Positions 6,031 through 18,858 of a stretch of DNA of 24,556 bases are shown piece by piece (positions within the stretch are counted from its first letter, which is position 1; every line of letters starts with the position of its first letter). The DNA is from Escherichia phage Ec1-ASingh. The notes below the pieces were generated by a model. That model made no database searches. It was not told the DNA's origin and worked only from the letters and a program-made list of their open reading frames with translations. Position numbers and translations under genes: made by a program. The stretch lies in sequence record PQ561395; one strand, 5' to 3'.

Positions 6031-6059
6031 TTGCACACCCCAACATAATAGGATACTAT
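6031..6059 (+). promoter_or_regulatory. sigma70-like promoter (TTGCAC-17nt-TACTAT), copy A of a repeated 33-bp element
   Basis: TTGCACACCCCAACATAATAGGATACTATTCAC at 6031-6063, 30/33 identical to 15786-15818; followed by AACAGGAG RBS and ATG at 6101. Confidence 0.5.
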
Positions 6060-6100
6060 TCACTTACACCAACAATGTTAACTCAAACAGGAGCTACCCC

Positions 6101-6292
6101 ATGACAGGTATTACTATGTTCTTCTTAATCATTATCGTTTTAGTTTATTTTATCCCATTTCTCGTGGCGCATATGCGCAACCATAAAGCTAAATTAGCGA
6201 TATTCATGGCTAATCTGTTTCTCGGTTGGGTTCTGCTGCCGTGGGTATTTATTTTAATATGGGCGTGCAACTCGAATGTCAAAGAGAAGTGA
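6101..6292 (+). CDS. superinfection-immunity-like small membrane protein
   Basis: 63 aa, two hydrophobic helices; motif FIPFLVAHMRNHKAKLAIFMANLFLGWVLLPWVFILIW matches the P.I.A..R.H.N...I..N.FLGW..IGW pattern of the Imm_superinfect family as I recall it (PF14373); RBS CAGGAG. Confidence 0.55.
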   Translation: MTGITMFFLIIIVLVYFIPFLVAHMRNHKAKLAIFMANLFLGWVLLPWVFILIWACNSNVKEK

Positions 6293-6331
6293 GCTAGTAT
6301 AGGACAAATCCTAAACACGAGGAAGTAAAGC

Positions 6332-7462
6332 ATGGCTCATAAGAAAATAACCGACGAACAGTTACGGGAAGAATTGAACGCCGGAACAAAAATTATTGAT
6401 ATCGCACGTAAGTACGGAATCTCAGACCGCGTTATCCGTATCCGTAAAGCGAAGCTGGCTAAGAAAGGTGTAGGCCACGGTCGCGACGTTAGTCACCTTG
6501 TGCCTGACGGCTACAAGATTAAAGGTACGTCGTCTCTGGTGGACGAGTTCGGCAACACTAAACTGCAATGGGTTAAGACCGACACTGACGCAGAACGTCA
6601 GGTCGAGTTGATGAAAGCTGTAATCGAGGGCATGAAGTCAGAGATTACGCCGGTTGCGCCTGTTAAAGCCGTTCGCGCCAAACGTGACGATAAACTACTT
6701 AATCTTTACACTGTATCTGATTTCCATCTCGGTATGCTGGCCTGGGCCGACGAGAGCGGCGACGACTGGGATATGAAGATTGCGGAAGACCTGTTCTCTC
6801 GCTGGTTCGACGTGGCATTTCAGAAAGCGCCGGACGCGGGAACAGGTGTTATTAACCTGCTGGGCGACCTTGCGCACTTCGATAGTCTGGATGCCGTTAC
6901 ACCTGCAAGTGGTCACGTTCTTGACGCCGACACCCGTTATCAGAAACTTGTCCGCTACATGATTCGTATGGTTCGCCGTGTTGTTGATATGGCGCTGGTT
7001 AAGCATAAAAATGTTCGCTTGCTTATCGTGCAAGGGAACCACGACGAAAGCGGAATGATTTGGTTAGCTGAGATGTTCAGTACGCTGTACGACAACGAGC
7101 CTCGTGTGTTCGTCGATACGTCGCCGGATGTTTACAAGATGGTGCAACACGGTAAAACGACACTGTTCTTCCACCACGGGCATAAAGCACGATTCGACGC
7201 TATCGAACCGGTTATGATTGCTAAGTTCCGCAAAGCGTTCGGCGAGAGTGTTTACAGCTACGCCCACGTGGGCCACCTGCACCATCAGAAGATTGTAGAA
7301 AGCCGTAACATGATTGTTGAGCAACACCGCACCTTAGCGGCTAAAGACGCCTACGCCTCCCGCGGCGGATGGATGTCAGGCCGTAGTGCAAATGTAATTA
7401 CTTATAGCGCCGAATATGGTGAGGTCGCACGTTTAACTATTTCACCGGAGATGCTGGGATGA
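6332..7462 (+). CDS. HTH domain + calcineurin-like metallophosphoesterase
   Basis: 376 aa. N-terminal HTH-like segment (IIDIARKYGISDRVIRIRKAKL); then phosphoesterase motifs in order: SDFHLG, GDLAHFD, QGNHDE, FFHHGH, GHLHH. RBS GAGGAAG. Confidence 0.7.
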   Translation: MAHKKITDEQLREELNAGTKIIDIARKYGISDRVIRIRKAKLAKKGVGHGRDVSHLVPDGYKIKGTSSLVDEFGNTKLQWVKTDTDAERQVELMKAVIEGMKSEITPVAPVKAVRAKRDDKLLNLYTVSDFHLGMLAWADESGDDWDMKIAEDLFSRWFDVAFQKAPDAGTGVINLLGDLAHFDSLDAVTPASGHVLDADTRYQKLVRYMIRMVRRVVDMALVKHKNVRLLIVQGNHDESGMIWLAEMFSTLYDNEPRVFVDTSPDVYKMVQHGKTTLFFHHGHKARFDAIEPVMIAKFRKAFGESVYSYAHVGHLHHQKIVESRNMIVEQHRTLAAKDAYASRGGWMSGRSANVITYSAEYGEVARLTISPEMLG

Positions 7463-7659
7463 AAGACATGTATGAATGCACCGATGTGAGTCCGTACGCG
7501 GAGAAAAATGGATTCGAAGTAGGTGCTGTATATGAAGGGGTCACCCTAGAGAATGGCGACGTAAGAATGTATTCGCCTAAATATCGCAGCTTCTTTGAAA
7601 TAGGCAACATTAACGAATCAGGCATAGCCCGATTTAAGAGAGTTAACAGTGACAAATAA
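7459..7659 (+). CDS. hypothetical protein
   Basis: 66 aa; ATG overlaps upstream stop (ATGA), GGAG upstream; same operon. Confidence 0.45.
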   Translation: MKDMYECTDVSPYAEKNGFEVGAVYEGVTLENGDVRMYSPKYRSFFEIGNINESGIARFKRVNSDK

Positions 7660-7879
7660 ATACAACCGTACAATGACAAACACTCACGGCAGCACTATGA
7701 CTGTAGACGTTTATGATGTGCTTCGTGCTTTCGACATCCGCGACCCGGCGCTACAGCACGCATTGAAGAAACTGCTGTGCATGGGCTTGCGTGGCTACAA
7801 GGACACTGGAACAGACTTAGCGGAAGCAATTGAAAGTCTGGAGAAGTTACGAGAGTACAGGAGTAACATTGATGAGTAA
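7649..7879 (+). CDS. hypothetical small protein (weak DUF3310-like pattern, unverified)
   Basis: 76 aa from GTG 7649 (AAGAGAG SD upstream); alternative ATGs at 7673/7696. Motif DVYDVLRAF...ALKKLLCMGLRGYKD...DLAEAIESL. Confidence 0.4.
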   Translation: MTNKYNRTMTNTHGSTMTVDVYDVLRAFDIRDPALQHALKKLLCMGLRGYKDTGTDLAEAIESLEKLREYRSNIDE

Positions 7880-7883
7880 AACT

Positions 7884-7910
7884 AAGGCCCCGAAAGGGGC
7901 CTTAGTTTTA
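7884..7910. terminator. bidirectional rho-independent terminator
   Basis: AAGGCCCC-GAAA-GGGGCCTT hairpin flanked by A-run upstream and AGTTTTA downstream; lies between convergent genes ending at 7879 (+) and 7908 (-). Confidence 0.6.
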
Positions 7911-8540
7911 TCGTTGCGACTTAATTACAGAAACGACTCTTGGATATATCCTCCCGTCTATGGAATCCATAAGCGGCTTAAGTTCTTCTGCTATTTCCAA
8001 TTTCCGCAACGTTCTGGCCTTGATGGCTTCGTCCAAGTCAATAAAATCGCCTAAGTTTTCTCGTACCCCGGTTATGGGGTTGTTAACACGGCATCGTATC
8101 TTGCCGTTTGTTTTTCTATAAGTAAGGCCTATTGGCAGATCGCCCCTAACCGCTGCGCTGTCGGTTAGGAAGTTGTTTAAAACCCTTGGGACAAAGATGC
8201 ATGTCTCCGGTGAGTATTCTTTAGCATCTGTAAGTAAATCCTTGTCTACATGCCAACCATCTACGTAATTATCTTTATACCATTTAAAGTAGTTGGAGAA
8301 ATATAGCCAGTCTTCGCACACTACCACACCTGCGTATGTTGGGTGCTTGGCGGCCCCGTGGTAGCACCTGGATATCATCGCATACCAAATATCATATACT
8401 GGGTGGTTAACAGACTTTTTGCCGTTGAAAATACTAGTGGTAAAATCAGCGTCGTTGATACCGACACCGCAGATTGTTTTACGGCATGATACCGCCCGTT
8501 TTGATGCGGGTATCTTTTCAAATTCTTCATACAGAAACAT
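7908..8540 (-). CDS. hypothetical protein (conserved W-x2-M-x2-RC / aromatic-rich motif; nuclease- or DNA-binding-like, family not identified)
   Basis: 210 aa ORF; motif YDIWYAMISRCYHGAAKHPTYAGVVVCEDWLYFSNYFKW; located between major tail protein and the plus-strand cassette. Confidence 0.5.
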   Translation of the reverse strand: MFLYEEFEKIPASKRAVSCRKTICGVGINDADFTTSIFNGKKSVNHPVYDIWYAMISRCYHGAAKHPTYAGVVVCEDWLYFSNYFKWYKDNYVDGWHVDKDLLTDAKEYSPETCIFVPRVLNNFLTDSAAVRGDLPIGLTYRKTNGKIRCRVNNPITGVRENLGDFIDLDEAIKARTLRKLEIAEELKPLMDSIDGRIYPRVVSVIKSQR

Positions 8541-8647
8541 TATTCACCTCGTCAGGCTCGTGTATTTATCAGATAAAGGAAAGAGAGGGCACGACCCCTC
8601 TCTTTTTCGCCCGCTAAAGCTATCCTTTACACTTCTTATACCATAAG

Positions 8648-9814
8648 TTATACGTAACTAATACGTTGAATTACGATAGACGACTGGTACTGATTGCCTG
8701 TGGACTGCCCTTCAATGCTTTGGGTAATTGACTCTGGGCCTGATATTTCTGGTGTAACCGCCGTAAGCTCTGCACGTTTCAGACTGAAAGACATAGCTCC
8801 GTTTACCCCTGCCAGAATAGAGTTAATCTCAACCTGTTGCTCGTTGATAAACTTCTGAATCATAGCCATGTCATACAGCTTGCCGGAGATGGAGAATGTG
8901 TTAGCTGCACGGCCTCGCTCCACGAACGCGACGCTACTGTTGCCGAGTTCGAACTGCGCGGAAGCACCGTTGTCGTTGGTGATGGTCAGGGTATCGCAAC
9001 GCAATGGCGTAGAACCGTCGAACACGGAAACGTCAACCGAGGAGAACGGCTCGTCACCAAACGTAACAGTGGAGAAGTCAGAGCCTGCTGGCGGTACAGA
9101 AAGAATTTCCTGACTCAGACCGATGAACGGGAAGCTGCCTGTCACCATCGCGTTTACGGCCTGTTCAATGGTGAAACCGGAGATCTCCACGCCTTTGGTC
9201 AGCATGTACGCGCCAGGGTTATCGCACTGGCCTTTGAACCATGTCAGGATGGAGAACGTCTTACACACATTACCGGTTTCCAGTTTGTCGCCAGTTTTTG
9301 CGTCAGTGGTTACTGTCTCTGCTGTCAGCGTGTGCTGAATACCTGCGCCCGTAACTACCAGAGCGGAAACCGCGGTCACGATAAACGGTTTTGAGTTGTC
9401 GCCGGTTAAGTCGGTGAACGCAATCAGGTCGCCAACTTCTACACCGTCAGTAATGAAGCTACCGGCAGCGCGGGTGAATGTTTTACCTGCCGGGGCGACC
9501 GTAATTTCGGCGTCAGTAATCTCTACCCCAGCTTGCCACGTAGACGTCATCGCGCCCGCGAGGAAATCATCCTGACTACGTGAGCTAAGTTCGATGGCGT
9601 ACTCCCCGCTAACCTGTTTGTTACCGGTGCGGATGGATGTGGTTTCTCGGCTGCCGTCCAGTTCGTTGGAGGTCAGCGCATCGCGGGTTACCGCAGGAAC
9701 ACCGCCCGTATTGCGCAGCGGCGACCAGACAGGGTTGTCTGGGGTTACGCCCGGGGTCACTTCCGCCACATAGAATTGCGCTGTATTCGCGCCCTTAAAA
9801 GGAGTTGTAGCCAT
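8648..9814 (-). CDS. major tail (tube) protein, putative
   Basis: 388 aa Thr/Ser/Gly-rich ORF; position after neck/terminator genes and before G/GT chaperones. Confidence 0.55.
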   Translation of the reverse strand: MATTPFKGANTAQFYVAEVTPGVTPDNPVWSPLRNTGGVPAVTRDALTSNELDGSRETTSIRTGNKQVSGEYAIELSSRSQDDFLAGAMTSTWQAGVEITDAEITVAPAGKTFTRAAGSFITDGVEVGDLIAFTDLTGDNSKPFIVTAVSALVVTGAGIQHTLTAETVTTDAKTGDKLETGNVCKTFSILTWFKGQCDNPGAYMLTKGVEISGFTIEQAVNAMVTGSFPFIGLSQEILSVPPAGSDFSTVTFGDEPFSSVDVSVFDGSTPLRCDTLTITNDNGASAQFELGNSSVAFVERGRAANTFSISGKLYDMAMIQKFINEQQVEINSILAGVNGAMSFSLKRAELTAVTPEISGPESITQSIEGQSTGNQYQSSIVIQRISYV

Positions 9815-13084: not shown

Positions 13085-13117
13085 TTAGTAAATGAAAAGA
13101 GGGACCGAAGTCCCTCT
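13085..13117 (-). terminator. rho-independent terminator downstream of major capsid gene
   Basis: AGAGGGAC-CGAA-GTCCCTCT hairpin (about 13098-13117) followed on the minus strand by TTTTCATTT; lies between capsid stop (13134) and next start (13074). Confidence 0.55.
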
Positions 13118-13133
13118 CGATTATAGCTTAACC

Positions 13134-14183
13134 TTAAGCCCCGACACCAGTTACCAGGAAGGCAATCGGTACGTGCTTGCGGTCAACCACACGGTTCCAG
13201 TTGGAGGCGTTCGCCAGGTCCTGCCAGGAAGCAGAGCGGGCTACTGTCTCAGTACCATTGCCAGTAATCACCGCGCTGGTGAAGCTGTAACCAAACGGGT
13301 GAAGCAACCAGGTCTTACGGGTCCACAGGGTTTCAACGCCGCCACCGTTACCACGAGACGCTTCGCGCTCGTATTCCAGCGGGTTAGACGGATCGCCTTC
13401 ACCATAACCGATAGCGCCGTTGCCGAAGATGATGGAGATGAACTTACGGTTAGAGCCGGTGCCGACTACGGTCATGCTGTCGTCAACAATCACGCGGTAG
13501 CCCTGGTAGGTGGCGAACATGGTGTTGTTGTCGGCGTCACGGATGAAGTCAATAAGCTGCTGCTTACCGGCCTGCGCATAAACGAAGCTGTGCATCGCGA
13601 TAGCACCCAGCACTTCACCGCCGTTGCCCATCAGCGCATCGCCCATAGTCTGGGTAGCGTCGATGAACGCACCTGCATCGAAGCCCAGAGTAGAGGACAC
13701 GTCGATTACCATGTCGTTCTGCTCGTGGTACGCGTCGGTAGCGGCTACGTTGTCGTTGTACAAACCGAGCGCGGTAGCGATCAGACGGCGTTGCGCCTGA
13801 CGCTGCCAGAAGTTATCCAGACGGGCTGCTACGGATTTAAGCGGGTCCTGGCGGGTAAGTTCAACGGTCAGATCCGCCTGACCAAAACCTTCGTTCAGGT
13901 AAGCTACGCGAACGTTCATCTCACCAGTCTGTACGTTGCGCGGGGTAGCGACGTCCTGATATACATCGTTCGAGTAGTTCGGCTCGATAGAGGTATCAAT
14001 AGCTTTCCAGTACGGCAGAACAGCTTTGTTGGATGGGCCGTTTGCGATAGCAGCGGCGTACGGAGTCGGGGTAAGGATACCGGACTGGAAGAACGCGGTT
14101 TTCTCTACCGGGTCCTCTGTCATGTAAGACAGAATGACCGATTCTTTACCAGTTACGATATCGCCGATAGTAGTAATTGCCAT
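13134..14183 (-). CDS. major capsid protein
   Basis: 349 aa; strong GAGGA SD; immediately downstream of scaffold gene and followed by a terminator; composition typical of coat proteins. Confidence 0.65.
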   Translation of the reverse strand: MAITTIGDIVTGKESVILSYMTEDPVEKTAFFQSGILTPTPYAAAIANGPSNKAVLPYWKAIDTSIEPNYSNDVYQDVATPRNVQTGEMNVRVAYLNEGFGQADLTVELTRQDPLKSVAARLDNFWQRQAQRRLIATALGLYNDNVAATDAYHEQNDMVIDVSSTLGFDAGAFIDATQTMGDALMGNGGEVLGAIAMHSFVYAQAGKQQLIDFIRDADNNTMFATYQGYRVIVDDSMTVVGTGSNRKFISIIFGNGAIGYGEGDPSNPLEYEREASRGNGGGVETLWTRKTWLLHPFGYSFTSAVITGNGTETVARSASWQDLANASNWNRVVDRKHVPIAFLVTGVGA

Positions 14184-14887
14184 TATTTTTTCCTCAGGGC
14201 TTTAAGTTGCCGTTCAAATTCGGCAGGGTTCGATTCGTACAAAGCGATACGCTCTGCTTCACTCATGTCTTTAAACGCTGGTGCGGCCCCGCCGCCTTTG
14301 CTACCGGAAGCCCCGCCGCCGGAAGCTGCATTTGCTTTAATCAAATGCGAAAACGCTTTGTGTTCGCGCAGGTATTTGCGGAACTGTTCCGGGTCAGTCG
14401 TGATTACGTTACCGTCTGCGCCGACAAACTTAGTAACCACGTCATCGCCTTCGAACTCAGTCTTAACGAACGGAGCAAGAATGTCTACTGCTTCCGGGGT
14501 AATAAAGTCACCTGCGAAAGAGCCTAACACCGCTTTACGTTCGCTGCCGAGGATGCGCTCAGCCATTTTGGTTATGCGACCATCTTTCTCGGCTAACACC
14601 GGGTCATACTGGCTACGAATCGTCTTTTCGAACTCATCCATCTTACCAGCGGCTTTTAATGCCTCCTGGTGTGCGCGCTGCCGTTCTTCTTCGGCCTCTT
14701 TTGCTTTACGGGCGGCTTCTTTCTTCTCCGCCAGCAATGCTTCCTGATTGGCCTTAAGCCCGGCGACTTCTTTCTCAATCAGCGCCTGAACTTCTTCAGC
14801 GGTGAACATTTTCGGCGCGTCACCGCCGCCAGATTTATCTTCTGCTCCAGCTTCTTCCTGGAACGGATAACGTAAAAAACGATTCAT
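14183..14887 (-). CDS. scaffolding protein
   Basis: Highly charged coiled-coil (EALLAEKKEAARKAKEAEEERQRAHQEALK); likely start is ATG 14887 (MNRFL...), since the track start 14941 is a TTG; directly upstream of major capsid gene. Confidence 0.6.
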   Translation of the reverse strand: MNRFLRYPFQEEAGAEDKSGGGDAPKMFTAEEVQALIEKEVAGLKANQEALLAEKKEAARKAKEAEEERQRAHQEALKAAGKMDEFEKTIRSQYDPVLAEKDGRITKMAERILGSERKAVLGSFAGDFITPEAVDILAPFVKTEFEGDDVVTKFVGADGNVITTDPEQFRKYLREHKAFSHLIKANAASGGGASGSKGGGAAPAFKDMSEAERIALYESNPAEFERQLKALRKK

Positions 14888-14969: not shown

Positions 14970-15233
14970 CTATTCCAGAATATTCCTCACGTAATCCTGC
15001 AACATGAACACTTTCAGTCTCAGTTGCCGTACACATTCGGCATTCTGAACATCAATAGCTAAATCCTCGTCGGCGTCGCTACTTGGCTGAGCCAGTTTGC
15101 ACGGCGGCTGCATCATCGTCGTATCCGGGGATGGAATTGGCGTTGGTGGCGGCGCGGGACTTGAGCTGCACGCGCTCAGGGTCGAAAGTGCACACGCTGC
15201 GACCAGGCGTTTTAATGTACTTAACGACTTCAC
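14970..15233 (-). CDS. o-spanin (Rz1-like outer-membrane lipoprotein)
   Basis: GTG start with AGAGGTG SD; signal peptide with lipobox LSAC then proline-rich SSSPAPPPTPIPSP; starts inside the Rz-like ORF in another frame and extends 109 nt past its stop. Confidence 0.55.
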   Translation of the reverse strand: MKSLSTLKRLVAACALSTLSACSSSPAPPPTPIPSPDTTMMQPPCKLAQPSSDADEDLAIDVQNAECVRQLRLKVFMLQDYVRNILE

Positions 15234-15465
15234 GGGTTATCACCTCTGATTTCGTTTTGCCTTCGTTGTCAGCGGCGGCGGCCTTTGATTCATCCTGCTG
15301 CTGCCGTTGTGTTTTCTTCGCGAACTCAGCCAGTGCTTCCTGCTGTTGCTGCGAAACGAGATTCGCCCGGCCTTCGTTCCAGCCGCTGCGGTATTGAAAG
15401 TAGCCGTGTGCGTAAGCCAGGATGATGAAACATGCTCCTGCTACGACAGTTGCTTTAAGATTCAT
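15079..15465 (-). CDS. i-spanin (Rz-like; N-terminal TMD, Gln-rich periplasmic helix)
   Basis: 128 aa; AAGGAG SD; N-terminal hydrophobic anchor ATVVAGACFIILAYAHGYF; contains the embedded lipoprotein ORF. Confidence 0.55.
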   Translation of the reverse strand: MNLKATVVAGACFIILAYAHGYFQYRSGWNEGRANLVSQQQQEALAEFAKKTQRQQQDESKAAAADNEGKTKSEVITREVVKYIKTPGRSVCTFDPERVQLKSRAATNANSIPGYDDDAAAVQTGSAK

Positions 15466-15785
15466 GTTTCTCCTTTCTTGATAAGTAAAGCCCCGCCTTA
15501 AAGCGGGGCGCTAGTCCTTATCATTTAAACATAGAAACGGCGTAATCTCAGTAAACCAGTTACTTTTTACACAAGCAATAGAGTATGACCCTTCCGAACG
15601 CGTCAGCGGAACTACACTCAAGTGCTAAAGCACGCGTTGCGTTCCCTGCCGCGCCGCGGTCGCTTGTTCATACTTCACAAGCTCAGGTGGAGCTTATCAT
15701 ATTTTTAGTGAAAAGTCAACTATTCGAATAGTTTATTCCAACATTTACAATTGAGCGGAATAACTGGAATAGGTAAATAAATAGT

Positions 15786-15814
15786 TTGCGCACCCCAACA
15801 TAATAGGGTACTAT
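15786..15814 (+). promoter_or_regulatory. sigma70-like promoter (TTGCGC-17nt-TACTAT), copy B of the repeated 33-bp element
   Basis: TTGCGCACCCCAACATAATAGGGTACTATTCAG at 15786-15818; followed by AACAGGAG RBS and ATG 15842. Confidence 0.5.
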
Positions 15815-15841
15815 TCAGTTAACTTAAACAGGAGATGAGAA

Positions 15842-16363
15842 ATGATTACTACAGTAATTACTTTCCCTGCGTATGTAGGGGCGAAAATATGCAGGGCTAA
15901 AAATGATGTTCGCTACTATTTGAACGCTTTTTACATAGACCCTGAGGGATTGATAGTGTCTACGGACGGTCATAGATTGTTCTGCGACAATGTGAAGACC
16001 AACGTTGAGAAAGGGACTCTCATAGACATCAAAGGGAGAGAGCCTTCTAAATTTAACTACGCGGAGGTAAACCACGACAACGGCAGTGTATCTTTCTATG
16101 ACGATAATCGTGCGCTTATATGTACACTTCCGGTAGATGTTGTAGAAGGAAACTTTCCTGACTGGAGACGCGTGGCGCGCATTACTCCTGGTACCGTCGA
16201 TAGCATAGGGTTCTCTCTGCGCTATTTAGCAGACGCGCACAAGATTTCTAAGGCGTATAAAAATGAAATTGCTCGTTTCGATTTCCAGGACCAAACAAAC
16301 GGATGCAAAATATCATTTTCAAACACAGCATTTATGGTGTTAATGCCTGCGCGAGTTAAATAA
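15842..16363 (+). CDS. truncated beta sliding-clamp (DnaN) homolog: domain II plus C-terminal half of domain III
   Basis: 173 aa. Motifs matching E. coli DnaN (from memory): NDVRYYLN (DnaN 150-156 DVRYYLN), STDGHRLFC (ATDGHRLAVC 171-180), GNFPDWRRV (GRFPDYRRV 240-247), FSLRYLADA (FNVSYVLDV), C-terminal MVLMPARV (VVMPMRL 360-366). No domain I equivalent. Confidence 0.8.
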   Translation: MITTVITFPAYVGAKICRAKNDVRYYLNAFYIDPEGLIVSTDGHRLFCDNVKTNVEKGTLIDIKGREPSKFNYAEVNHDNGSVSFYDDNRALICTLPVDVVEGNFPDWRRVARITPGTVDSIGFSLRYLADAHKISKAYKNEIARFDFQDQTNGCKISFSNTAFMVLMPARVK

Positions 16364-16366
16364 ACT

Positions 16367-16390
16367 AAGGCCCCATAACGGGGCCTTTTA
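16367..16390. terminator. rho-independent terminator (shared by convergent genes)
   Basis: AAGGCCCC-ATAAC-GGGGCCTT hairpin then TTTATCATT; 3 nt after stop of 15842-16363 and abutting stop of minus gene at 16391. Confidence 0.55.
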
Positions 16391-16852
16391 TCATTCTGGC
16401 TTAGTGACCTTCGCCGCTTTACTGACGACCTCTACACCATCGTCATCGGTAACTTTAACGAAGTATTCACCAACTGCATTAACCGTCAGAGACAAAGCCT
16501 CTTCCGGGGCGTTGACTACTTCCTTGCCGTCTTTGTACCAGGTCAGCACATACGGCGCTTTACCCGCTTTAACTTCGACAGTGATGGTTGCGCTGCCGTC
16601 TGCCAGTTCAGCGTCCTGCGGTTGCACTGAGAAATACACGTCGCCAGCGTCCGCCAGATACGGAATCTCATAAAGCATACCCGCCGCGGGCAGCGCGATA
16701 CCGGTCTTGTCTGCAAACGGCATCTCGTCTACAGGTGTACCGAGTACACTTTCGTCTTCAATAAACACCACGTTCTCGCCGGAGCCAGACACGCGGGCGT
16801 ACTGGACCACACGACGCGACGGCACATCAGTTACTTTGAAAAAGCCCATCAT
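16391..16852 (-). CDS. Ig-like domain-containing protein (possible head decoration/accessory)
   Basis: 153 aa; start overlaps Mu F-like stop; C-terminal TITVEVKAGKAPYVLTWYKDGKEVV...GEYFVKVTDDDG is Ig-like. Confidence 0.5.
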   Translation of the reverse strand: MMGFFKVTDVPSRRVVQYARVSGSGENVVFIEDESVLGTPVDEMPFADKTGIALPAAGMLYEIPYLADAGDVYFSVQPQDAELADGSATITVEVKAGKAPYVLTWYKDGKEVVNAPEEALSLTVNAVGEYFVKVTDDDGVEVVSKAAKVTKPE

Positions 16853-18822
16853 TAATCCCCTTTCAGATAATCAGCAACACGTTTATCGAGTTCCGCCATC
16901 TGCTTAAGCGTGAGCGGATTCCCGAAACCATCTACAGATATTACGCGAAACTCCTCTGGTGATATACCGCTGTTGCGGAAAATCTTACCGCGGGTCGGCC
17001 CGAGTGCTTCATCGACGAACCACGCCGGTTGTTGTTTAAGGAACTCGTAATAGGTGGTGTCCGCGCTTACCTGAGTACCACCGTCTGCACCCTTAGCCGC
17101 ACGTTTTGCACCTTTATCGAGGAAGTCGAACTCGGAACTGATTACCGGAGCCGTGGTACTTCGGCACCCAAAATGTGCTGGCGGCATCGGCCCTTTACCG
17201 ATTTCCCACGTCATTCCGTCTCTGGCCCTGCAATTCTTGACTATCGCACTACCTGCTGTATAATATCCTTGACTACTAGAGAGGGTATAAACATGGCACG
17301 TTCTAAACTCGACGCTTATGCGGATGATATTTGTTCTTTGTACCGAGATGGCACTCCCGCCAGCATCATAGCCAAGAATTACGGCGTCACTACCACCACG
17401 GTAACAACATTTCTCAAGAAGCTCGGACTCATGCATGATCGACCCCGGGGTTGGGTTTCTAACGACACCATTTTGAATCAAAAAAGGGCTATAGAATTGT
17501 TCGAGTCCGGCGTCCCGCCTATTGAGTGCATAAGAAGGACCCAAGTAAGCAAAACAGTTTTCTATTCTATGGTCAAAACACTTGGCCTCGCTAAGCGCGG
17601 GCACACTCACAGGACATTCACCCCGGAGGAGAAAATCGCCAGAGCTATCGTCCGACAGCAAAGCGGCGCTATGAATAAGACTGAAACCCTCGCTTTTGAA
17701 TTGTTTAATTCCGCTGGCGTGGACGTAGTTCCGCAGTTTGCAATCGGCCCGTACAATGTCGATTTTGCCATTGAGTCCCACTCCATCGCCATAGAAATCT
17801 GTTGCCGCGGGACTCGTGCTTACCATTTTCCTGATGGGGAAATCAGCGAGCGTATTAAAAATATAATCCGCTCTGGCTGGCATGTTTATGTTCTTCACTG
17901 TTTCGAGCACAGTCACTTTGTCAACAGTGGTATACAAGACATGCTTAGTTGGGTCGAGTTCATCAAGCGGAGTCCATCCGTATTGCGTGAGTACAGGGTG
18001 TTTCGGGGTGCCACTGAACTTCTCGCCGTTGGAAAGTTCGATGGTAAGGATTTTTCCTGAATAGAGTCCGCGCATTACCGCGTCCATCCCCGCGATGGGC
18101 GCTAATTCTGTTTCAGCCGTGAAACACGTTGTACTGGTACGGCTGTCCAGCGTTGACACCCATTCGTACTTCTCGATGATGTCGTCGTTCTGGCGGTACG
18201 TCTCGTTACGTGCTTCGTTGGATACGTGCGACAGCGCGGTGCGTATTACGGTAGCTGCGTTACGTTCAGAGATATCAGCCAGGCCACCAGCACCAACAAC
18301 ATTCTTAACAATCTGCCGTGTTGTCTGGCCTTGTACAAAGCCCATCTTAACGCCTGTTACAAGGCGCGCGACTTCTGTTTCCCCCCAGCCCGACATCAGC
18401 TTAGTGAAGTCAACTGGCTTGTCGCTTAATGATAATGGCTGAAACTCGGCGGCGGACCACACCTGTTCAGCGGTCGGGGTAACAAATTCCGCATTAACGT
18501 TAGCCGTGAGTGTCTTCACATTCCACTCAGCCTCATACGCTGCAAGCTCCTTAAGGTCTTCCGTCAGCTTTGTCCGCCAGTCACCAGTAAGCCCTGTCAA
18601 TGCTTCTTCAAGGTCGAGTAACAGTTTATTCAGTCGCGCAGTGCTCCGCCCGTCGTCGCCGAATAACAGCACCTGCCGTTTGATTTCGTCCCGCATCTCC
18701 TTAATGAACGGCGCGAGGTCTTTCACCTCACCGGATGCAGTGCGTTGCAGCCATATCTGGTGGCTGATTAGAGATGTAAGTAAGCTCATAGATAAACCCT
18801 GTGGCGCTAAAGTTAATAGCAT
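16852..18822 (-). CDS. head morphogenesis protein (Mu F / SPP1 gp7-like) interrupted by an in-frame intein
   Basis: 656 aa. Exteins carry YEWVSTLDSRTSTT | CRARDGMTWEIGKGPMPPAHFGCRSTT, i.e. the family LD.RT...CR..DG ... PP.H..CR pattern is restored only after removing residues 233-530. Confidence 0.8.
   Translation of the reverse strand: MLLTLAPQGLSMSLLTSLISHQIWLQRTASGEVKDLAPFIKEMRDEIKRQVLLFGDDGRSTARLNKLLLDLEEALTGLTGDWRTKLTEDLKELAAYEAEWNVKTLTANVNAEFVTPTAEQVWSAAEFQPLSLSDKPVDFTKLMSGWGETEVARLVTGVKMGFVQGQTTRQIVKNVVGAGGLADISERNAATVIRTALSHVSNEARNETYRQNDDIIEKYEWVSTLDSRTSTTCFTAETELAPIAGMDAVMRGLYSGKILTIELSNGEKFSGTPKHPVLTQYGWTPLDELDPTKHVLYTTVDKVTVLETVKNINMPARADYIFNTLADFPIRKMVSTSPAATDFYGDGVGLNGKIDIVRADCKLRNYVHASGIKQFKSEGFSLIHSAALLSDDSSGDFLLRGECPVSVPALSEAKCFDHRIENCFAYLGPSYALNRRDAGLEQFYSPFLIQNGVVRNPTPGSIMHESELLEKCCYRGGSDAVILGYDAGGSAISVQRTNIIRISVEFRTCHVYTLSSSQGYYTAGSAIVKNCRARDGMTWEIGKGPMPPAHFGCRSTTAPVISSEFDFLDKGAKRAAKGADGGTQVSADTTYYEFLKQQPAWFVDEALGPTRGKIFRNSGISPEEFRVISVDGFGNPLTLKQMAELDKRVADYLKGD
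17237..17264 (+). promoter_or_regulatory. near-consensus sigma70 promoter (TTGACT-16nt-TATAAT) for the nested plus-strand gene
   Basis: Read directly; lies ~29 nt upstream of ATG 17293, with GAGAGGG SD at 17279-17285. Sits inside the intein block-G coding sequence on the opposite strand. Confidence 0.5.
17293..18060 (+). CDS. HTH-HTH + Vsr/DUF559-like (PD-(D/E)XK) endonuclease, putative homing endonuclease, nested antisense within the intein
   Basis: 255 aa from ATG 17293 (track ORF opens at 17029). Two HTH-like segments (GTPASIIAKNYGVTTTTVTTFLKKLG; GVPPIECIRRTQVSKTVFYSMVKTLG); C-terminal VVPQFAIGPYNVDFAIESHSIAIE...ERIKNIIRSGWHVYVL matches the DUF559/Vsr-like pattern. Own promoter and SD. 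Confidence 0.6.
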   Translation: MARSKLDAYADDICSLYRDGTPASIIAKNYGVTTTTVTTFLKKLGLMHDRPRGWVSNDTILNQKRAIELFESGVPPIECIRRTQVSKTVFYSMVKTLGLAKRGHTHRTFTPEEKIARAIVRQQSGAMNKTETLAFELFNSAGVDVVPQFAIGPYNVDFAIESHSIAIEICCRGTRAYHFPDGEISERIKNIIRSGWHVYVLHCFEHSHFVNSGIQDMLSWVEFIKRSPSVLREYRVFRGATELLAVGKFDGKDFS

Positions 18823-18846
18823 ACTATAAGAAAACCCCTTTCGGGG
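18823..18846 (-). terminator. terminator-like hairpin abutting the head-morphogenesis start codon
   Basis: Minus-strand CCCC-GAAA-GGGG followed by TTTTCTTATAGT and then ATG at 18822; lies between portal stop (18859) and the Mu F-like start. Confidence 0.4.
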
Positions 18847-18858
18847 CTATATGTGAAC

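Follow-up and report, generated by a model that had tools for sequence, protein, structure and literature searches.

The window analysed here is a 24,556-nucleotide stretch of Escherichia phage Ec1-ASingh (sequence record PQ561395), and all coordinates are counted from its first letter. The source phage is a Kagunavirus (Guernseyvirinae), an E. coli siphovirus with 92% identity to vB_EcoS_fFiEco03 (fFiEco03 below), in the reverse orientation. Ec1-ASingh is a virulent phage. No prophage counterpart of the window was matched among 5,426 complete E. coli genomes, and a prophage or moron-in-lysogen reading of the locus was discarded for that reason. No integrase is annotated in fFiEco03, and lysogeny genes are not reported for fBC-Eco01 (PMC9825357) or vB_EcoS-Golestan (PMC7203180). 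Structural genes occupy the minus strand of the window: those for terminase, portal, intein-containing MuF-like protein, Hoc-like decoration protein, spanin, scaffold, capsid, connectors, tail tube, HNH endonuclease, tail chaperone and tape measure protein. This region is broken by two plus-strand units, cassette A and cassette B. A tRNA scan found no tRNA genes in the window, and Rfam at gathering score gave zero matches across it. The features discussed below are the following.

6031–6066, plus strand: predicted promoter P_B of cassette B, TTGCAC-17 nt-TACTAT, core ATAATAGGATACTATTCA; repeat D3; published PHIRE consensus
6101–7879, plus strand: genes of cassette B, four ORFs
6101–6292, plus strand: superinfection immunity protein (cassette B)
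6332–7462, plus strand: SbcD-like metallophosphoesterase/DNA repair exonuclease (cassette B)
7459–7659, plus strand: small ORF of 66 aa without family match (cassette B)
7649–7879, plus strand: small ORF of 76 aa, phrog_2452; 'ATPase' phrog_17613 (cassette B)
7877–7910, both strands: predicted terminator T_B, a perfect 15-bp inverted repeat (I17)
7908–8540, minus strand: HNH homing endonuclease gene, convergent with cassette B (phrog_953, E 5e-71)
8648–9814, minus strand: tail tube gene; in most relatives T_B directly follows its stop codon (ACGCATAA-AACTAAGGCCCC...)
15786–15821, plus strand: predicted promoter P_A of cassette A, 92% identical to P_B over 36 nt
15842–16363, plus strand: cassette A gene, 173 aa, annotated as a sliding clamp in relatives
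16367–16387, both strands: predicted terminator T_A, an 8-bp hairpin of about −15 kcal/mol on the plus strand
16391–16852, minus strand: Hoc-like head decoration gene, convergent with cassette A and last gene of the first late unit
18833–18848, minus strand: small late-sense hairpin AGCCCC-GAAA-GGGGTT after the portal gene

The 76-aa ORF of cassette B aligns solely with the C-terminal third of families of about 235 aa, and together with the 66-aa ORF before it may be what is left of a longer gene, still whole in those relatives where the gap is larger. For the cassette A protein, the top PHROG is 'RusA-like resolvase'/processivity factor. The HNH gene is present between the tail tube gene and T_B in the window, in fFiEco03 and in one metagenomic contig (L053), and is missing in the other loci, approximately 40 in number. 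Its insertion (7908–8646) preserves the exact TAA-AACTAAGG junction, and a separate hairpin (8580–8605) is located upstream of the HNH gene. A homing target of this endonuclease was considered for the T_B hairpin and rejected, as the hairpin is found in about 40 genomes without the HNH gene. The MuF-like minor head protein (16852–18822, minus strand) has 656 aa in the window compared with 347 aa in fFiEco03; it gives a weak Intein_splicing match and is annotated as intein-containing in relatives. Opposite the major capsid and scaffold genes, the plus strand has an ORF of 551 aa (13092–14747); as it is annotated in no relative, it most likely arose by chance.

The two cassettes have a common predicted promoter (TTGCRC-17 nt-TACTAT), which bears out the shared promoter of the original prediction: 6031–6066 and 15786–15821 are 92% identical over 36 nt. 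The promoter core ATAATAGGnTACTATTCA is found at 6045–6062 and 15800–15817 in the window and in seven copies in fFiEco03 (L002; 4894, 14660, 30957, 33572, 33616, 37121 and 38600). The copy of the promoter at 37107 in fFiEco03 heads a small, mostly unannotated gene cluster opposite the replication block, which we infer to be an early operon. In fBC-Eco01 the motif was found by PHIRE as seven 'phage promoters' (PP1–PP7) and ascribed to a phage RNA polymerase (PMC9825357); the annotation of the related genome fFiEco03 includes no gene for such an enzyme. The core includes an inverted repeat (AATAG-N4-CTATT), and two of its copies in fFiEco03 flank a divergent region adjoining a DicA-like repressor gene; it may act as an operator in addition to providing the −10 region. 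A promoter-like site on the minus strand (TTAACA-17-TAGTAT, 6053–6081) overlaps the −10 of P_B and could make it a bidirectional promoter, from which transcription of the tail chaperone and tape measure genes would start afresh. This site is not conserved at the other cassette.

Each cassette ends in a hairpin. The two hairpins had been described as near-identical, and the sequences confirm both this and their positions: T_A and T_B have in common the stretch AAACTAAGGCCCC...GGGGCCTT, in which AAACTAAGGCCCC is the direct repeat D16. With at most one mismatch, ACTAAGGCCCC occurs three times in the window, compared with 0.27 expected, and none of 100 shuffled sequences reached three. Both cores consist of 8 bp, six of them G–C pairs, closed by loops of 4–5 nt (−12.4 to −14.9 kcal/mol). 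Each hairpin lies between convergent genes, as had been claimed; it occupies the 24–28 nt gap between the stop codon of the cassette and that of the structural gene, and begins 0–3 nt past the stop codons of ORFs 7649–7879, 7908–8540, 15842–16363 and 16391–16852.

T_B is formed by the arms TAAAACTAAGGCCCC (7877–7891) and GGGGCCTTAGTTTTA (7896–7910) around a GAAA loop (7892–7895), with the GC-rich core hairpin at 7884–7903. Its outermost three pairs are the TAA stop codons of the plus-strand ORF 7649–7879 and of the minus-strand HNH gene 7908–8540. The element is fully symmetric: taking only the 8-bp core AAGGCCCC/GGGGCCTT as the stem leaves AGTTTTAT as the tail of either strand, with the U-rich tract UUAGUUUUA. 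The RNA folding calculation called for by the original prediction gave −30.0 kcal/mol on the plus strand and −26.2 kcal/mol on the minus strand for T_B (z about −8 to −9). T_A is composed of AAGGCCCC (16367–16374), an ATAAC loop (16375–16379) and GGGGCCTT (16380–16387), flanked by TAAACT on the left, in which TAA is the stop codon of ORF 15842–16363, and by TTATCATTCT on the right, with 3 nt separating it from the stop codon of the minus-strand gene 16391–16852. It folds at −15.4 (plus) and −18.7 kcal/mol (minus), with z of −2.9 and −4.1, respectively, and its tails are T-rich on both strands (UUUUAUCAUU on the plus strand and UUAGUUUAUUU on the minus strand). A consensus terminator scan marked T_A as terminator-like on both strands and missed T_B only because it lengthens the stem to 15 bp and so counts the T-tract as part of it; this miss is no evidence against T_B.

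Intrinsic terminators are characterized by a GC-rich stem (about 5–14 bp) with a short loop (3–8 nt), an adjoining U-rich tract and a position after the stop codon at the end of a unit. In bidirectional ones, convergent genes are separated by one hairpin that an A-tract precedes and a U-tract follows, so that a hairpin and a U-tract are read on both strands. T_A and T_B have all of these features. A discriminant score calculated with the formula of d'Aubenton-Carafa et al. (1990) has a positive value for each of the four directions (3.5–21.2). Both hairpins have T-rich tails on both strands and the anatomy of terminators usable from either strand, as had been proposed. The score is 21.2 for T_A in the cassette direction compared with 3.5 in the late-sense direction, and 13.9 and 6.9 for T_B (6.9 being late-sense). 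The sides with UUAGUUUU score low (3.5–13.9), compared with 21–38 on the sides with a U-run (38 for T_B of fFiEco03). The UUAGUUUU tract is interrupted (UUAG) and is the one used by both late-sense directions in the window, so late-sense termination may be leaky or partial. The stop codons are also only 4–7 nt from the GC-rich stem (GGCCCC/GGGGCC), and a terminating ribosome could therefore disturb hairpin formation.

The comparison was extended to the complete genome of fFiEco03 and to about 75 related metagenomic loci. In fFiEco03 a third copy of the hairpin is located where the tailspike gene meets the replication genes, which run the opposite way, so that all three convergent junctions of this genome carry it. 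The consensus is TAA-AACTAAGGCCCC-N4-GGGGCCTTTT. In about 40 related contigs the hairpin follows the stop codon of the tail tube or HNH gene, the form at the tube site being ACGCATAA-AACTAAGGCCCC-N4-GGGGCCTTTTTCTTAC after the tail tube stop codon; it also follows the stop codon of the Hoc-like gene, and that of the tailspike gene regardless of the tailspike allele. A 36-mer of the element was found in 792 phage records at 1,961 places, mostly in Guernseyvirinae of Salmonella and Escherichia, with typically 3–6 places per record among the matches listed. A REP- or MITE-like element was rejected on these grounds, with 3–6 copies among the matches listed, always at gene ends and with terminator tails. 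The hairpin is found after a tail fibre gene in the unrelated siphovirus Bas81 (L243 2499–2545, PQ850630), with 100% identity over 29 nt, and after a gene for a 712-aa hypothetical protein (a putative tailspike) in Agtrevirus SKML-39 (L244 2499–2540, JX181829). Both phages are outside Guernseyvirinae. The TAA-AACTAAGG junction is present in both copies, and the downstream TTTTCTCTAT flank or the AAAC loop also matched, which suggests that the hairpin travels with receptor-binding-protein modules. It had been presented as a mark of the cassettes, and this restriction does not hold: it also ends late units such as that of the tailspike, stands at cassette-free sites and occurs in unrelated phages. 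The shared 5′ arm (AAACTAAGG) likewise fails as a cassette feature. Of 37 distinct contexts of the tube site (site B), 28 have ATAAAACTAA as their left flank, so the arm usually faces the late gene, and it stands on both sides in the window and L071 only. A different conserved element bearing the same 20 nt (ATTCTCAGGAAACTCAACTAAGGCCCCGATATTGGGGCCTTCACCATAAAAGGAGGCCC; ATTCTCAGGAAACTCAACTAAGGCCCCGATATTGGGGCCTTCACC) and devoid of a T-tract was observed in L126, L132, L140 and L147; it recurs in at least about 30 other viral contigs among the matches listed, many of them non-Kagunavirus.

Within the family the loops vary freely and the stems are kept, and more distant relatives have other stems at the same place (GGGGGCC/GGCCCCC or GGGGC/GCCCC). 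Covariation was assessed on an alignment of 21 distinct site-B hairpins, in which MAFFT mis-registered two divergent ones (L084 and L087). It was not significant within the genus (score of 0.063 compared with 0.050 in shuffles, with 44 of 500 shuffles reaching 0.063), as can be explained by the fact that the 8-bp core is almost invariant. Support for the structure thus comes from positional conservation within the genus, from the free variation of the loops and from the replaced stems of distant relatives rather than from compensatory change. Among close relatives (L051–L123, three sites) the loops occur as reverse-complement pairs: TTTC/GAAA, TTCC/GGAA, AAAC/GTTT and GTAA/TTAC, with GTTAA/TTAAC and ATAAT/ATTAT as further pairs. 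Six of the seven distinct loops of the tube site form such pairs, which points to repeated inversion of the stem-loop or to conversion between oppositely oriented copies. Perfect palindromes are rare (two of 29 distinct variants, namely the window and L071). Compared with T_B of fFiEco03, which has the same flanking genes, three clustered substitutions complete the symmetry in the window; this suggests that the palindrome may have arisen by templated correction or by copy-to-copy conversion.

The presence of the terminator at the tube site is linked to that of a convergent gene. L086, L089 and L042 have no gene between the tube and chaperone genes and no terminator there, while every relative with a convergent gene at this site has one, including Jerseyvirus-like contigs with a small membrane-protein gene and L087, the stem of which is different. 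The clamp/RusA-like cassette follows the Hoc-like gene in the window, but in L067 it is the portal gene that precedes it; the homology between these two copies (605 bp, 91% identity) starts inside the hairpin and ends just past the −35. The promoter–gene–terminator module of the original prediction is thus supported: one cassette is found at two genome positions, the tube-site terminator tracks convergent cassettes, and the comparison shows a real portable terminator–gene–promoter unit. The clamp-like cassette is present in 11 of approximately 47 genomes compared (window included), and other genes fill the same cassette sites in other relatives. Sites without a cassette retain a late-sense hairpin, as seen after the Hoc-like gene in about nine relatives (TAAACTGAAGCCCCGAAAGGGGCTTTTTAG) and at 18833–18848 in the window, which is the empty form of a fourth cassette site filled in several relatives.

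The cassettes had been called morons. Morons are reportedly promoter–gene–terminator units in the late operons of temperate phages, for example HK97 and HK022 (Juhala et al., 2000). The cassettes resemble them in being autonomous units between structural genes, with their own predicted promoter and terminator flanking the gene or genes, and in their presence/absence and positional polymorphism among collinear relatives; this part of the designation stands. The remainder does not, since the carrier is virulent rather than temperate, prophage expression of the cassettes is excluded by the virulence of the host phage, the genes are of early type and the promoter is the repeated core of the phage itself. 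Unlike morons, the cassettes run opposite to the structural genes, and their products serve DNA metabolism and superinfection immunity instead of lysogenic conversion. The 'late operon' that they were said to be insulated from is not single either: it comprises three or more minus-strand units, with a hairpin of this kind at the end of each.

Taken together, T_A and T_B are very probably bidirectional Rho-independent terminators, copies of one repeated Kagunavirus element placed at convergent junctions. Host RNA polymerase would read the hairpins and, in either direction, the transcript would fold into the GGCCCC/GGGGCC hairpin, with the U-rich tract straight after it (UUAGUUUUA or UUUUAUCAUU) releasing the polymerase. 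Once the transcript is free, pairing of the A-tract with the U-tract could extend the hairpin to a long stem (15 bp at 7877–7910) that shields the 3′ end. The plus-strand early-type units, presumably driven by the repeated core ATAATAGGnTACTATTCA, would meet the minus-strand structural genes head-on at both hairpins; both transcripts would then end within the 24–28 nt gap, limiting antisense read-through and polymerase collisions. The element would in this way mark every Kagunavirus convergent junction (after the Hoc-like, tail tube and tailspike genes) and move with promoter–gene units as a portable module, its sequence identity probably reflecting common descent and copy-to-copy correction rather than a sequence-specific function. 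The analysis shows the sequence, fold, position, copy number, conservation and portability of the hairpins; that they terminate transcription in vivo, how efficiently they do so in either direction, and that they insulate is what we infer. The proposed insulation from convergent transcription is plausible. If termination is efficient, downstream late genes would require their own promoters, and the search for a conserved late promoter downstream of each terminator gave a single candidate, at 6081–6053.

Other readings of the hairpins have to be weighed against these terminators. They could be elements of the late genes, either one-way terminators or 3′-end stabilisers that set the stoichiometry of the structural proteins, the cassettes having landed downstream and their own termination being incidental or weak. 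This would fit the late-sense hairpins at cassette-free sites (after the Hoc-like gene and at 18833–18848), the similar hairpins found after the capsid and tube genes, and the uninterrupted U-run, which faces the late direction at T_B and T_C in most relatives. We nevertheless consider it unlikely: the tube–chaperone terminator is missing without a convergent gene, the left flank is always an A-tract and so gives a U-rich tail on the other strand, the better U-tract of T_A faces the cassette, and the hairpin relocates together with the cassette. Alternatively, the repeated hairpin could work mainly as DNA: a homology 'linker', or hotspot of recombination or insertion, for swapping tailspikes and early cassettes, with termination secondary. 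Cassette homology does begin within the hairpin, various cassette genes and tailspike alleles all adjoin the TAA-AACTAAGGCCCC boundary, the same hairpin follows the tail fibre or putative tailspike genes of Bas81 and SKML-39, and the reverse-complement loop pairs indicate DNA-level rearrangement at the stem; moreover, Pas et al. propose that a terminator-like motif downstream of receptor-binding-protein genes is such a hotspot (PMC10408124). Yet the cassettes have no associated recombinase or transposase, a homology of 20–30 bp is short, and termination alone accounts for the canonical features and for the fact that the hairpins are placed strictly at convergent junctions. Insertions beside terminators are likewise what would remain after selection against operon disruption, and we find this hotspot reading distinctly unlikely as the main explanation.

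The sequence itself could also be what is kept. An arm (AACUAAGGCCCC) retained for a sequence-specific phage or host factor, be it an antiterminator, an RNA-binding regulator or a processing nuclease, would account for a core stem that is near-invariant across about 790 phage records, perhaps beyond the needs of pairing, and for the interrupting 'CUAAG' kept in all three copies. It is, however, very improbable given that the loops are unconstrained and even inverted, that the arm may stand on either side with one side lacking it in most copies, that unrelated stems occupy the same site in more distant relatives, and that no candidate factor was identified. Typical RNase III substrates are longer than the stem of this hairpin; an RNase III site was dismissed, a 15-bp stem being too short. 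Finally, the similarity between T_A and T_B as a coincidence, or as the convergence of two independent GC-rich terminators, is hardly credible. Terminators in general favour a GC-rich stem flanked by A/T, and the same 20-nt motif occurs in scattered unrelated viral contigs, but none of the 100 shuffles reached the observed count, the identity extends to the non-stem bases CT, and the third copy with hundreds of orthologous copies makes a family by descent; this explanation is effectively refuted. Going beyond bidirectional termination, it is possible, if rather doubtful, that TAA-AACTAAGGCCCC-N4-GGGGCCTTTT is a portable boundary element across unrelated families of enterobacterial phages, serving as a homology anchor for module swapping, as a hotspot for inversion and palindrome correction and, with the repeated promoter, as a 'plug-in socket' for accessory genes.

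Read as bidirectional terminators, the hairpins belong to a well-known class of ordinary elements, and earlier work has predicted them in related phages. In the Pseudomonas phage LUZ7, bidirectional terminators between convergent genes have been validated experimentally (the T60/T61 pair; PMC9163698). Such terminators are also described in bacteria (Ju et al., 2019, as cited within PMC9163698), and one has been predicted in phage tf (PMC3517423). The window copies have the same GC-rich hairpin with an A-tract and a U-tract, in a short head-on gap and on both strands. In contrast to the validated LUZ7 pair, the Kagunavirus element is a multi-copy, near-identical family at every convergent junction, predicted from sequence. 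The closest precedent is in the same genus: T1/T2 of fBC-Eco01 are the same hairpin (AATAAAACTAAGGCCCC-GTAGT-GGGGCCTTTTTCTTTACT), adjoining the same repeated promoter motif, which ARNold predicts as a terminator in both directions (PMC9825357, Supplementary Table S2). That paper lists the hairpin but does not mention that it is a repeated family, that it marks convergent junctions or that it is part of a module (PMC9825357). For Kagunavirus, Jerseyvirus and Guernseyvirinae, our search of the literature for transcriptomes found only in silico lists of promoters and terminators. What is modestly new is the repeated family at every convergent junction, its co-movement with promoter–gene units and the reverse-complement loop pairs.

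Two further comparisons are of interest. 'Motif three' is a conserved terminator-like 20-nt motif located 0–19 nt past the stop codons of tailspike (RBP) genes across lytic genera, and Kagunavirus is not among its listed carriers (PMC10408124). Our hairpin, which directly follows the tail fibre gene of Bas81, the putative tailspike gene of SKML-39 and the tailspike genes of Kagunavirus relatives, recalls this motif and might or might not be the same sequence, motif three being published only as a figure. Motif three concerns RBP genes only, and neither hairpin of the window stands behind a tailspike gene. As for the loops, the reverse-complement pairs and the three clustered substitutions that perfect T_B recall hairpin inversion and quasipalindrome correction. 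Small hairpin-mediated inversions and quasipalindrome correction are known from chloroplast non-coding DNA and from E. coli mutagenesis. Unlike in those cases, the pattern is found here at phage terminators, and the mechanism is one that the sequence patterns suggest.

The current understanding of termination is unchanged by these results, and their interest lies in the transcription map, in which the structural region is divided into at least three minus-strand units, and the dividing hairpins also close two early-type cassettes that run antisense. This is relevant to the annotation and engineering of Kagunavirus phages, which are under study for therapy, and cassette sites equipped with a promoter and a two-way terminator would be natural insertion points for payload genes. 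The repeated terminator also marks the exchange boundaries of accessory genes and tailspikes, which makes the recombination-linker idea testable with existing genome collections.

Other hairpins were observed in the structural region. In the distant relatives L086 (11161–11308), L089 (11155–11250), L042 and L087, a long imperfect conserved hairpin (TTGCCGTGGATAGG...CCACGGCA or AATCGTCGGC...GCCGACGATT, without a U-tract) lies just upstream of the tail chaperone gene and could be an element of RNA processing or translational control. The Rz-like spanin gene of the window (15079–15509, minus strand) is found within the structural block, distant from the holin/endolysin genes of relatives, and is preceded, approximately 25 nt upstream of its start codon, by a strong terminator-like hairpin (GCCCCGCT-TTAA-GGCGGGGC followed by TTTACTTATC, −17 kcal/mol) that is kept in most relatives.
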